Origin: a virus
Taxonomy: Duplodnaviria; Caudoviricetes
Virus record (IMG/VR): IMGVR_UViG_3300031994_000004
Strand: one strand, 5' to 3'
Length of the DNA: 64,000 nucleotides
Below are positions 8,597 through 55,041 of this stretch, piece after piece. Position numbers and translations under genes: made by a program. Each line of letters starts with the position of its first letter. The stretch's first letter is position 1. Under the pieces are notes generated by a model, which did no database searches, had not been told where the DNA came from, and worked only from the letters and a program-made list of their open reading frames with translations.

Positions 8597-9124
8597 ATGG
8601 ATTTAAGAGAAGCCAAACAAATTTTGAATAAAAATGGTTATGAACTATTAGACGAAGGCATTTTTCAAGGTATTAAAGACCGATTTGCTGATAGAAAACT
8701 AAACAAAGTAAATAAGAAAGTAAATAAAGCAATAAATCGTCTTTCAAAAGAAGGCCAAACTGATATTGGTGGTAGCACTGTTGATGAAAATAAAGAATTT
8801 TACAAGGTAGCAACTAAGGATATTCCAAAAGCCCTTCGTGGACTTCGTTGGGGCATTGATGACGAGAAAGCCGAAGAAATTTTAGAGAAATATGGTGATA
8901 AATACAAGTTCAACTTCCAATACTATGTAAATAATTGTACTGGAAATGAAACAAAAGAAGCAAACGAAGAAAATGGTTTGGCTTTTGATATAGATGGTTA
9001 TAAGAAAGGAACATATTACTCTGATATTTACAGAAAGAATTTCTTTGAAGAACTTGAAAAATTAAAAGAAGATGAAGGTATTGATGACTTAGAAGAATTG
9101 TTCTATAAATTGAATAAAAAGTAA
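8597..9124 (+). CDS. Leader-family protein (putative internal head protein)
   Basis: N-terminus MDLREAKQILNKNGYELLDE; late promoter. Confidence 0.6.
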   Translation: MDLREAKQILNKNGYELLDEGIFQGIKDRFADRKLNKVNKKVNKAINRLSKEGQTDIGGSTVDENKEFYKVATKDIPKALRGLRWGIDDEKAEEILEKYGDKYKFNFQYYVNNCTGNETKEANEENGLAFDIDGYKKGTYYSDIYRKNFFEELEKLKEDEGIDDLEELFYKLNKK

Positions 9125-9157
9125 TTTTTTAGTACAAAATAGCATAAAATTGGAAAT

Positions 9158-9189
9158 AGGGACCCAAAAGGTCCCTTTTATTATAAATA
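9158..9189 (+). promoter_or_regulatory. Terminator hairpin fused to late promoter TATAAATA
   Basis: Same agggacccaaaaggtcccttt hairpin as at 8532; TATAAATA at 9182-9189. Confidence 0.7.
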
Positions 9190-9206
9190 ACATAAAGAGG
9201 TTTATA

Positions 9207-9746
9207 ATGATTAAAGAAGAATTTTACAGTATCGTAGATAATTTGGCTATGCTTAACGAAGAAGCAGAAACTGAAGTAAAATCTGCTGAAGATATGGAAA
9301 AAGAAGTTGAGAAAACTAACAAAGAAGTAGCAGATAAAGATGCTACTAGCAAAGAAAGTGGTGAAGATGGAAAGAACCCTCGTGAATTGGTACACGAACT
9401 AATCAAACCTCAGGTTGAAATTGCGACTTCTACCATAAATTCCATTAAGGACGCATACGCCGACAACTGTAACAACACTAAGGAACTAAGTTCTATGATT
9501 GACCAGATTAAGAACTGGGAAGGAACCATTCGTGGTGCTTGTAGAACGATTGCTGCTACAGTTGAAAATAAGAAAATGATTAAGAGAAACGAAAACGGCA
9601 AATATGTTGCTTGGGATGGCAGAGAATTGAAGAAAGTCTGTTCTGGTAAGGCTTACGGTATGATTATCAACGAAGATTCCCGTGACCGTTCCACATTGGA
9701 CTTGGCAGCTGCCATTATCGTATTCTATAATTCTCTTCAAGGTTAA
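9207..9746 (+). CDS. Hypothetical late protein
   Basis: Start chosen at the ATG after SD gagg and the late promoter. Confidence 0.6.
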   Translation: MIKEEFYSIVDNLAMLNEEAETEVKSAEDMEKEVEKTNKEVADKDATSKESGEDGKNPRELVHELIKPQVEIATSTINSIKDAYADNCNNTKELSSMIDQIKNWEGTIRGACRTIAATVENKKMIKRNENGKYVAWDGRELKKVCSGKAYGMIINEDSRDRSTLDLAAAIIVFYNSLQG

Positions 9747-9764
9747 TTTGTTTGGAGTTTATGT

Positions 9765-51345: not shown

Positions 51346-51872
51346 TGTACGAAGCACTCTTTCAAAGAATTAAATCAACGGATTTTCCGCTCCAGTGCCG
51401 CGGAATGTATTACTTCTCAAAGGGCCGACACGCACATCAGGAACGAAAGGGTTCTGGCACTCCGTATTTCGTTCATCCACGTGGTGTTGCTCTAATTGTG
51501 ATGGAACACGGTGGCACGATTGACCAGATTAATGCTGCTCTCGCACACGATTTGCTGGAAGACACTGAAACCAGTTTCTTGGAAATCAAAGCAGTCGCAA
51601 ATTCTACTCATTGTGCGGAACTGTGTGCTGAATTGAGAAACAACAAATTTGGGATTGCTGAAAAGGGCAAGGAAGATTATATGACTGAAAAGCTTCTCAA
51701 GATGTCCAATGACGCACTCCTGATTAAGCTGGCGGATATGGTCTATAATTCTTGGGATAAGCCCGCAGAAAAGGCCCTGAACAGAATGTACAAAAATGTT
51801 TGTGAACTTCTGTTGAAGCGTAATCTCTCACCCACCTGTAAAGAACTTGCGGAACTTGTAATTCTCGCATAA
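51345..51872 (+). CDS. HD-domain (p)ppGpp-hydrolase-like protein (small alarmone hydrolase / Mesh1 type)
   Basis: HAHQERKGSGTPYFVHP..VA, ALAHDLLEDT, IKLADM..N. Confidence 0.8.
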   Translation: MYEALFQRIKSTDFPLQCRGMYYFSKGRHAHQERKGSGTPYFVHPRGVALIVMEHGGTIDQINAALAHDLLEDTETSFLEIKAVANSTHCAELCAELRNNKFGIAEKGKEDYMTEKLLKMSNDALLIKLADMVYNSWDKPAEKALNRMYKNVCELLLKRNLSPTCKELAELVILA

Positions 51873-51885
51873 AAGGAGTAACAAA

Positions 51886-52343
51886 ATGCAAATTGTAAAA
51901 ACTTTCGGACAGTCTCTCTATGTACCAAAGACCGGTACTCGCAAGCTTGTCAATAAGACAGTTGTGATTGGTATTTATCCGACCTTGACGAATGACCAGT
52001 TGGTTGCTATCGTTAAGGAATACGAAAAGAACCATGAACCAGGTAATTATTACTTTGTTTATGACGAAACAAAGCGAGATGTTGTTTATCGTCAAGGAGA
52101 CTAATTATGCTTGGTGTCTGGTTGGGTAATACACGATTAGCAAAGGAACATCCTGAAGAGTTTCTAAAGATTGGAATTAAGCTTACTATCTGTATGGGGA
52201 TTTTGTTCACCATTGTTGCCCTGACGCAAGATTTTGCTAGGGATTGTTTGCGTGATTTCATTGAATGGACTTGCTCATTTAATGGAACATTGGATGTTGA
52301 AGCACTTTGGGAACAAATTAAAAACTCTATTGGAATGAAGTAA
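51886..52343 (+). CDS. Two hypothetical ORFs (51886-52104, 52107-52343)
   Basis: SD aggag. Confidence 0.6.
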
Positions 52344-54717
52344 TGGCTGTATATTTGACACTAAATGAAATAAACGATATAGCGAAACGCTTTAATGGCA
52401 ATTTCATTCAGGGTTGTTGGCATTGTCGCTTTTATATTTTGAATAATAGAAATGAACCTATAACCATAGTGAAATTTAAAAAGCAAGAAAAAGATAAGTA
52501 TAAAATTTGGTTGTTTAATGATGTATTTAATCATTGGAGAACTCCTAATTCTTGGACTGCAATTTTTGAAACCTCAAATTACGGAAAACCAAAAACCAAG
52601 GAAGAATTTTATAACCGATTAGATATGTTATCTAAAAATTTGGTTGAAATTAAAAAGACAGTAAAAGAATGGGCAATTAAACAGAAAGAAATGAAACTTA
52701 ATGAGGATTTCAATGATTAAAACTGCAAATACAGAACAAGAATTTAAAGACATTGTTATGTCAGATTTAAAGTCGCATAACATTCTTACACAAAAGGCAA
52801 TTTTAAAATCTACACTCAATTATTGGTATGGTGATGCCCAATGTTCTAATTCCGGTAATACAGAAATAGTCAATTACAAAGCTTCTATTACCTTTATGGT
52901 TTTTGAAGACGAAACAACTATTAACAAAATAAAAGGAATTGCGAAATACAGACCACTCCATACACAGTTCAAAGCAATTAAAGCATTTTGGTGTGATGAT
53001 AATACGATTGTTTATGGTTATGATTCTTGGTATCATACTTACGAGGAACACAATCCAAGTCCTTACAATGGTTTTCCAAAAGTATGGGGCTGGAGTGATG
53101 ACGATGTTAAAGCAATGCCTGATGTGTGGGCTGACTCTCATCCATCAAGTAAACTTGCTCATTATAAACCTTGGCCTTGTTGTTATTATGGACCGAACTA
53201 TTCAATTACTGGTGACCAGTGGGCTAAAGTTGAATTACACGGCTTAAAATTCTATAAGGACATTGACAATTTGAATAAAATCTATCAGTTTGAAAAGGAC
53301 GAAATTATTAGACTTATTCCTGTTGCGGAAAAGATGAATAAACAGTATGCTCAATTTCTTACAACTGTAGATTGGCATAAAAAGAGTGATAGAAAAATTA
53401 TTCGTCAATACAAACTCAAACTTAATCAACAGAATGTAAATCTTAACAAAGTAAAAATGGATTTCTAAAGGAGATACAATGACAAAGAAATTTTATGTTG
53501 TTAGTTATGAAGAAAACGGTGTAACAAAATACTACACTGATAAGAAAGATACTGATTTATTTGCTTATGAAACTTCCGACATTTTTGAAGCTAAACGATA
53601 TGTGACTTATCGTAAAGCAGAAAACTATGTAAACAATAAGAAGAAAGAAGTCAACACGTGGATGAGAAAAACCATTAAGAATTTTAAGATTCACGAAGTT
53701 GAAGTAACATACAATGTAATTAACACAAATGAAGTATGATAACTGAAGAAGATGTAAAAGATGTAGTCAGTCGTTATCCAAATTTGGAACTGTCAATTAA
53801 CACTAACACACTTTTTAATAACCATACAAAAAGATTGTTAGTTTATGTAAATTCCAAAGCATTCCACTATGGAAGTAATCTTCTTGTTGAATATGATTAC
53901 AATGGAAAACCTAAAGATGGGATTTTGCAGGTAAACAATGGGAACCAGCACATTTATAGTGATTGGGCTTATATCACTGAAGATTCTATTTATCTGGTTG
54001 AAAATGAAAAAATGAGAAAGAAGGTCCGAACTAAAGAACAATTTGAGAAACTGATTGTTGATTCTTTAAGAATGATTAAAGAAGCCGAAGTTGACCTGCA
54101 CCTCCGTAAGATTAGTAAGGATTTCTATGACTAGAAAACAAGTAAAAAATCTTTGTGCCGAATTTGGTATGGAAATGGTTGCTTTTCCTAGGCGTATATA
54201 TTATTGTGATTATCTTGTTGGTAGTTTCTATCCCGATAAAGGAAACTGTTCATATAAAATGAGTTTTATTGGTTCTTGTGTGAAAACAGATAATTATGAA
54301 ACAGCTCGGGAAGAAGTAATTAAAAAGATAAAAGACATTAAAGAATTTATAAATCAACAAATGTTAGAAAAGATTAAAGAGGATTTCTAAATGACATTTA
54401 CAGAATATAAACAATTATGCCTAAAATATAATTTGCAGGTATTGAGTTACGAAGGACGAGATTTTGGAATTTGTGGTGTTCCGTTTGTGGGTTGGGGTAA
54501 TCATATTAGAGTTATTCCAGAACGAGTTTGGAAGGACGAATTGTTATCTGACAACGGAAAGCATATCATTTATACAGGAGAATTCCAATATACTCCTGAT
54601 TTAATAAGTAAGAAAGACCAAAAAGCACTTGAAAATTATTTGATAAAATTAAATGCTTGGTTAAAACAAATTAAAGCCGAACAGAAAATCAGATTTATAA
54701 ATGAGGATTTCACATAA
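52343..54717 (+). CDS. DF-tail array (52343-52720, 52713-53468, 53736-54134, 54127-54390, 54391-54717) plus non-DF ORF 53479-53739
   Basis: Ends LNEDFND, VKMDF, ISKDFYD, IKEDF, INEDFT. Confidence 0.65.
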
Positions 54718-54729
54718 AAAAGCGGGATT

Positions 54730-55041
54730 TTATTTCCCGCTTTCTTCTTTAAATTTTGCTATGACATTTTCGTCAGTTGCCGCAACTTCTGCTGGACAAC
54801 CCTGTTCTTTGTATTTTGCTAGAAAATCAAACATATAATTTAGCATTATACCAGTTACAGATTCAACAGAAAGTTTTTTATTATTTTTTGCGAATGTTTT
54901 AGCCACAGTTTTGATGTATTCTTCAGTACTCAATTTCTTTCTTTTTGCGGTCATTTGTCGCTGCGGATTTTTGTAAAAATTGTAATCTTCCAAAATAAAT
55001 CCGTTTTTGTTTAAAATTTCTTTAGCTTCTTTGATTTCCAT
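54730..55041 (-). CDS. Leader-family protein
   Basis: MEIKEAKEILNKNGFILE; SD aaggag; TATAAATA on the minus strand at 55061-55068. Confidence 0.65.
   Translation of the reverse strand: MEIKEAKEILNKNGFILEDYNFYKNPQRQMTAKRKKLSTEEYIKTVAKTFAKNNKKLSVESVTGIMLNYMFDFLAKYKEQGCPAEVAATDENVIAKFKEESGK

Follow-up and report, generated by a model that had tools for sequence, protein, structure and literature searches.

A common N-terminal leader on eleven late proteins of an uncultured T4-like phage, a candidate capsid-targeting propeptide with diverse cargo

The stretch of phage DNA analysed here (64,000 nucleotides, hereafter the window; IMG/VR record IMGVR_UViG_3300031994_000004, Caudoviricetes) corresponds to the minus strand of positions 145654-209653 on a 210,185-bp IMG/VR contig (G000), 34% G+C, and carries eleven genes whose products begin with one and the same short leader (Table 1). 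All eleven starts listed in the first-pass annotation were found to open reading frames (ORFs) of 91-210 aa with the leader at Met1. The leader follows the pattern M-x-[LI]-x-E-A-x-x-h-L-x-x-x-G-[YF], then [IL]-x-E, the last motif ending at residue 18, 19 or 20 in each of the eleven proteins. A loose form of this pattern, applied to the six frames of the window, gave exactly 11 matches vs. none in 50 shuffled sequences, and the search over the entire 210,185-bp contig returned the same 11 only. A profile of the 22-residue leader added two items, namely a leader-only 13-aa ORF in the window and one diverged copy outside it. The consensus proposed earlier describes the copies well, except for the 1-2 residues that it placed between G-[YF] and [IL]-x-E; the true spacing is 0-2 residues, so that the earlier formula, if literally applied, misses most copies.

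When the leaders were stripped, BLASTP revealed no significant pairwise similarity among the remaining bodies (best E 0.015), and the alignments of the full-length proteins end at residues 18-20, with the exception of the pair p39480/p55041, which look like distant paralogues. This upholds the initial claim that eleven late proteins share an N-terminal leader followed by unrelated bodies. Five residues, M1, E5, A6, L10 and G14, are invariant across the eleven leaders. Ala6, Leu10 and Gly14 are each encoded by three or four synonymous codons, thus indicating that the peptide, rather than the DNA or RNA, is under selection. A GGAG-type ribosome site is situated 6-10 nt upstream in 8 of the 11 leader genes. 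The predicted mature parts, i.e., the proteins devoid of the leader, have masses of 8.5-22.7 kDa and are mostly acidic.

Table 1. Leader genes and putative late promoter boxes in the window
Feature	Position	Strand	Description
late promoter box	8556..8563	+	TATAAATA
p8597	8597..9124	+	175 aa; leader MDLREAKQILNKNGYELLDE; predicted mature part 155 aa, isoelectric point (pI) 5.5
late promoter box	26046..26053	+	TATAAATA
p26081	26081..26569	+	162 aa; heads three-gene late unit
p26582	26582..27214	+	210 aa
p27224	27224..27577	+	117 aa
leader-only ORF, apparent remnant	27586..27627	+	13 aa; MQLNEAKEILMAA and stop; directly after p27224, then terminator hairpin
late promoter box	28873..28880	+	CATAAATA
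p28900	28900..29265	+	121 aa
late promoter box	39063..39070	+	CATAAATA
p39100	39100..39411	+	103 aa; terminator hairpin at ~39430-39460 after
late promoter box	39468..39475	+	TATAAATA
p39480	39480..39770	+	96 aa
p39772	39772..40224	+	150 aa; body probably a remote relative of T4 Arn
p40260	40260..40535	+	91 aa
p40548	40548..40862	+	104 aa
p55041	54730..55041	-	103 aa, basic, pI 9.1; lone minus-strand late gene amid plus-strand genes
late promoter box	55061..55068	-	TATAAATA

The eleven genes are organized into six transcription units, and the first gene of each unit is preceded, at a distance of 12-41 nt, by a [TC]ATAAATA box, the other five genes being internal. The earlier observation that such a box stands ahead of every cluster is therefore confirmed. 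In related phages (see below), the same box is present ahead of the genes for the major capsid protein, scaffold, protease and tail sheath, as well as ahead of nearly every leader gene in a complete genome (G007). In the contig, TATAAATA is under-represented, with 21 occurrences observed vs. ~59 expected. The placement of the box and its under-representation suggest that it acts as the late promoter of this clade, just as in T4, and the leader genes appear to be expressed late, alongside the head genes. The region upstream of p39480 (39430-39482) comprises a terminator hairpin, the box, 4 nt and the ATG, with no Shine-Dalgarno sequence. The layout hairpin-TATAAATA-4 nt-ATG is also seen ahead of a 106-aa gene in the relative G005 (L008 ~13814-13830). 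Such an arrangement suggests leaderless or near-leaderless late mRNAs, or read-through expression.

To characterize the spread of the leader, 1.84 billion representative proteins were searched with its 30-column profile. The leader was found to head at least 355 protein clusters (E<=1e-3). Of the best 150 clusters, 136 are matched from residue 1 onwards, and the majority of the others start with a Met overlooked by gene callers. The cargo bodies of these 150 clusters fall into 94 unrelated groups, of which 75 are singletons; in 115 bodies from this set, almost no Pfam family was recognized. The consensus derived from the retrieved proteins, M-x-L-x-E-A-K-x-I-L-x-x-N-G-Y-I-L-E, gave no match in a tblastn search of 50,697 GenBank phages. 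The modular character of the leader is further seen in individual families. Orthologues of p39772 are 81-88% identical, and the free positions of their leaders vary more than the bodies. Moreover, relatives bear leader-cargoX-leader'-cargoY fusions, whose second halves are 91-93% identical to p40548 (P0001) and p39480 (P0002), along with tandem double leaders (P0006, P0061, P0072) and one 38-aa protein made of two leaders. In the window, the leader-only ORF at 27586-27627 has the appearance of a relic left when a cargo was lost or exchanged.

These data bear on the possibility that the leader proteins belong to a single, rapidly evolving family of paralogues, in which the bodies are no longer recognizable as related and the leader is just a conserved structural element at the N-terminus, with no targeting role. 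The clustering of the leader genes and the distant paralogy of p39480 and p55041 would fit such an origin; however, the bodies range from ~30 to >400 aa and differ in predicted secondary structure, the similarity breaks off sharply at residues 18-20, and the p26582 family (43 homologues, nearly all with the leader) has a mosaic structure, where the body modules are swapped and the leader is constant. Furthermore, in the AlphaFold2 (AF2) model of p26582 (predicted local distance difference test score, pLDDT, 75.9), a compact confident core is formed by residues 31-140, and the leader helix (residues 3-12) is predicted to lie outside it. We regard this explanation as very improbable.

Relatives of the window were collected by three routes, via gp46 (SbcCD-type gp46/gp47 genes are present in the window), via a 510-aa neighbour and via a DNA pattern for the leader. 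When used alone as a query for related loci in IMG/VR, p39772 retrieved no relative, and megablast and tblastn searches with the neighbouring genes against GenBank phages found no match. One relative, G005 (105 kb, 4-7 leader ORFs), encodes a gp4-like head-closure protein, a tail sheath and a head maturation protease (Peptidase_S77, E 1e-30; phrog_207, E 3e-52). Two others are large genomes, G007 (424 kb, terminal repeats, 100% complete) with 10 leader ORFs and G008 (411 kb, 98% complete) with 7, and both encode a Peptidase_S77 protease, a gp23 capsid protein (E 1e-68 to 1e-70) and a phrog_237 scaffold. Close relatives also sit on contigs of 375 kb and 409 kb. The gp46 proteins of G007 and G008 are 45-49% identical to that of the window, and their capsid protein is closest to those of T4-like cyanophages (~30-34% identity), which together place these phages, whose genomes measure ~0.4 Mb, on a remote branch of the T4 superfamily. 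A weak Gp23 match at G000:32524 was dismissed as spurious; it lies inside a 137-aa ORF between uvsX-like (RecA-type) and methyltransferase-like ORFs.

The relatives permit a comparison of the leader with the specificity of the head protease. Throughout the clade, [IL]-x-E ends at residues 17-21 in 119 of 124 N-terminal leaders vs. 8.7% expected from the bodies; the P3 position of this site is solely I or L, with Asp the commonest residue at P1'. In G007 and G008, the capsid protein contains the sequence L-L-T-E54↓D-F exactly 34 residues ahead of the conserved VRR motif, and T4 gp23 has F-L-T-E65↓A-E at an equal distance from VRR, E65↓A66 being the known maturation site (PMC5694885). The register used here is ungapped and anchored on VRR; MAFFT shifts the T4 site by a gap. 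This match leads us to suggest that the protease of the clade very probably keeps the T4 cutting rule and in addition tolerates Asp at P1', just what the leader offers. Moreover, in the G005 sub-clade the leader or an internal copy is borne by a gene that follows the protease gene directly or lies within two genes of it.

A conserved gene pair lies downstream of the protease gene in L008 (9334-10200, G005) and also in L014, L016, L017, L018 and L020. The first gene of the pair encodes an acidic protein (pI 4.1-4.6) with a degenerate leader at its N-terminus, the second an Arg/Asp/Pro-rich repeat protein with three degenerate leader-like copies (e.g., LGAAIRTAEENGFTIRK), and the two may be core components. 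The acidic protein after the G005 protease was considered as a gp22 scaffold, and this assignment was dropped: the phrog_237 scaffold of G007 and G008 adjoins the capsid gene and is devoid of the motif. The protease itself has a leader-like stretch, AEAKSVLEDAGN, at its N-terminus in G008 (L141 1327-1995) and G007 (L142 1495-2163), and a Cys-rich 107-aa protein adjoining the G007 protease contains LEEAKRIVEENGMTFIRE at residues 14-31.

Taken together, the results allow us to propose, with fair though by no means full confidence, that the leader is a lineage-specific capsid-targeting propeptide. In the mechanism that we envisage, the leader, with its amphipathic helix (residues 3-12), N-G turn and short hydrophobic strand, would attach every late cargo protein to the prohead core during its assembly. 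The gp21-type head protease of the clade would then cut after the Glu of [I/L]-x-E at residues 18-20, perhaps with a second cut at the invariant L3-x-E5↓A6, thereby freeing the 8.5-22.7 kDa, mostly acidic protein inside the head, from which it would exit with the DNA at infection. Since such a tag would be autonomous, any ORF placed behind it could become cargo, which would account for the fast turnover of cargo between relatives. The first-pass annotation had viewed the leader as a modular capsid-packaging tag with a protease site, and this view is the best supported among those considered here, given the gp21-type protease of relatives, the L-T-E↓D match, the late promoters, the hypervariable cargo and, in one sub-clade, the location of leader genes next to that for the protease. 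The steps of docking, cleavage, packaging and ejection would all follow the T4 precedent.

The capsid-targeting sequence (CTS) of the T4 internal proteins was reportedly treated by Mullaney and Black in 1996. A CTS is carried by IPI, IPII, IPIII and Alt and is removed by the prohead protease gp21 (reviewed in PMC9026906, PMC3012670). Propeptides of 10-19 residues target the T4 internal proteins to the core, extra cut sites inside the propeptides are known, and the tag is kept while the cargo varies between T-even phages (PMC9026906, PMC3012670, PMC5694885). The system described here resembles that of T4 in many respects: a short N-terminal peptide ending in [L/I]-x-E is found on unrelated small proteins, relatives with the leader possess a gp21-type protease, the genes are apparently late, and the cargo is hypervariable between relatives when compared to the conserved tag. 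In T4, at least one such cargo (IPI*) counters restriction. The differences concern the leader itself, which is longer, has a helix-turn-strand shape, a second invariant L-x-E↓A at residues 3-5 and mostly Asp at P1', as well as the scale: this contig has 11 such genes and the clade at least 355 clusters vs. 3-4 in T4. The internal, tandem and fused two-cargo forms also set it apart. Another parallel is provided by the phiKZ-like giant phages, which have head and ejection proteins with propeptides (phiKZ gp175, SPN3US gp245; PMC5694885). There, too, a gp21-related protease cleaves many proteins of the head interior after Glu, paralogues share identical N-termini and a propeptide may bear several cut sites; in contrast to the leader, their motif is S/A-x-E, the propeptides are often >100 aa, and the phages are not T4-type.

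Several observations weigh against a capsid-targeting propeptide. Neither gp21, gp23 and gp20 nor any other head gene was found on the 210-kb contig of the window, which is 56% complete according to CheckV, so that the link to the protease depends on the relatives. By eye, the leader consensus bears no likeness to the CTS of T4 IPIII, which we take to be MKTYQEFIAE, and hence the relation to T4 would be one of analogy or great divergence, and not of membership in one sequence family. The gp22-like scaffold of G007 and G008 was found to lack the leader motif. A diverged twelfth leader-like N-terminus, MSFDLDEAKNLLEENGFNLF, which belongs to a small acidic protein encoded outside the window (G000:C1:74495-74536, minus strand), has no [IL]-x-E. 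The motif also occurs internally and in repeats, including the three copies without [IL]-x-E in the Arg/Asp-rich protein. Finally, the invariance of E5-A6 may be structural and not mark a cut site, as follows from a resemblance of the leader to the PASTA domain. As a side remark, the C-terminal part of the twelfth protein contains ...DDVDDFF.

This resemblance deserves a closer description. AF2 modelling of two proteins (p39772 and p26582) predicted a helix at residues 3-12 followed by coil, and none of the structural matches of p26582 extends into residues 1-19. The leader of p40260 gives a weak PASTA match (13.1 bits vs. the cut-off of 23.2) confined to profile positions 9-28, and the leader profile retrieves one bacterial protein with seven PASTA domains. 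No window leader contains a complete ~64-residue PASTA domain at the Pfam gathering score. The leader, L-x-E-A-x-x-x-L-x-x-x-G-h-x-h, thus corresponds to the helix and first strand of PASTA (PF03793), but covers only ~20 of the 64 positions, lacks the remaining strands and stays far below the Pfam cut-off, so that the likeness is probably one of local structure and not of membership. Together with the internal and tandem copies, it suggests that the leader is a docking unit and goes beyond a mere cleavage site. In our view, the leader is best seen as a self-standing helix-strand unit that has to pair with a strand of some partner, which would fit a docking role.

Such a unit could also work apart from the head. 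The leader might be an autonomous docking or oligomerisation module that is not removed and whose partner is unrelated to the prohead, be it a host protein, the leader itself (by strand pairing) or another phage structure. The internal, tandem (P0006, P0061, P0072) and triple copies, the helix-strand resemblance to PASTA and the diverged copy at G000:74495 devoid of [IL]-x-E would all be compatible with this explanation, as would the finding that an unrelated phage group (41-49% G+C) has a motif of this kind at the N-terminus of one orthologous coiled-coil protein. It leaves unexplained, however, why [IL]-x-E is nearly universal at a fixed distance with only I/L at P3, why the capsid protein has a matching L-T-E↓D, why leader genes adjoin the protease gene and why their promoters are strictly late. 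We therefore consider it unlikely. In the unrelated group, the coiled-coil protein is 300-530 aa long, starts with MT[FL]EEAKKILEKEGF and repeats the motif at ~residue 38; it is encoded in L026, L032, L034, L038, L040 and ~40 more loci, mostly from metagenome 3300045988, and is followed by a 472-aa protein and then by a >1585-aa protein with repeated LY-AL-ADGAVS motifs.

The propeptide reading and the PASTA likeness may also be combined into a more specific, still tentative proposal, for which we would not yet claim an even chance. The leader would then be a 'half PASTA', a self-contained helix-strand that finds its partner strand in the prohead core and works N-terminally, internally and in tandem. 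As a plug-in, it would load ~100 unrelated cargo families in a clade of 0.4-Mb T4-like phages, some of them as two-cargo polyproteins cut by the head protease, with one Arn-like DNA mimic pre-loaded so as to enter the cell along with the DNA.

As to the cargo, the first-pass annotation had envisaged injected effectors, possibly anti-defence proteins. Searches of PHROGs and Pfam with all eleven proteins gave nothing above threshold. Below it, p39772 has its best Pfam match to DM_Arn (PF22134; E 0.0037, 18 bits vs. the cut-off of 26). The best match of the p39772 family among 177,635 PDB sequences is Arn again (3wx4; E 0.018, 60 ungapped columns), and hhalign gave a probability of 77% when the family was compared to T4 Arn. 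Residues 34-93 of p39772 align without gaps to residues 12-71 of Arn with ~25% identity, and both proteins are acidic. The body of p39772 is thus probably related, if remotely, to T4 Arn, a DNA mimic that acts against restriction, with the difference that in p39772 the Arn-like domain follows a leader and a late promoter. We know of no capsid-targeting leader on T4 Arn and of no evidence for its packaging. If the relation is true, a DNA mimic that counters restriction would here have come under a late promoter and acquired a packaging tag. Arn is an inhibitor of McrBC (annotation of AF158101).

For the ten other cargos, Pfam, PHROGs, structure and PDB sequence searches revealed no recognizable family or fold, so that, of the set envisaged earlier as anti-defence effectors, p39772 is the one whose sequence speaks for such a role. 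PDB sequence searches with p8597 and the p26582 family found nothing. The structure prediction recommended earlier for the cargo domains yielded a usable model of p26582, which had no convincing match in PDB and BFVD (Foldseek E >=0.005; best VIA Z 6.4, in the noise range) and hence no known fold, and a model of p39772 too poor for fold comparison (pLDDT 42); the ESM Atlas yielded nothing but noise. Residues 69-157 of p26081 match PDB 1rtw, a putative transcriptional activator, with E 9.5e-4, and this match is probably compositional. Orthologues in relatives were found for p26081 (G005, 40% identity over 72 aa) and p40260 (G001, 71% identical over the full length).

The surroundings of the 39100-40862 cluster bring in one more explanation, according to which the leader would be recognized by a modifying enzyme, similarly to the leaders of ribosomally synthesized and post-translationally modified peptides. 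An operon of three tandem radical S-adenosylmethionine (radical-SAM) enzymes (36335-39055), the second and third of which are paralogues, ends 45 nt ahead of p39100, and its products would be the candidate enzymes. Yet six of the eleven leader genes are located >9 kb away from this operon, and tblastn with the three enzymes detected no homologue in ~150 loci of relatives that contain ~170 leader ORFs. Because of the latter result we rate this explanation lowest of all, with hardly any weight.

Other genes of the window may be mentioned here. The neighbours of p8597 are a tail-assembly-chaperone-like gene (8024-8506, phrog_1158) and a gene (9765-13598) for a 1277-aa protein with YadA head repeats (E 3e-12), probably a fibre or adhesin. 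A 5'-open ORF at 3-2111 (at least 702 aa) has a Y_phosphatase3 domain at its end (E 6e-24). A methyltransferase-like gene and two glycosyltransferase-like genes, with a late box at 40858 ahead, occupy 41550-43627, the part of the window with the lowest G+C content (26%).

If the tag works as proposed, the sequence alone would mark all proteins that these uncultured jumbo phages bring in with their DNA, i.e., hundreds of clusters, nearly all of no known function. Proteins delivered with the DNA act before phage gene expression, which makes this set a promising source of new anti-defence and host-takeover proteins, as first hinted by the Arn-like cargo. The 'half PASTA' proposal, if true, would mean the largest and most modular repertoire of injected proteins described for a T4-type phage. 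With 18-20 residues and a conserved shape, the well-defined leader is longer than the shortest, 10-residue CTS of T4; it could throw light on the docking of cargo to the prohead core and, in related phages, be used as a handle for packaging.

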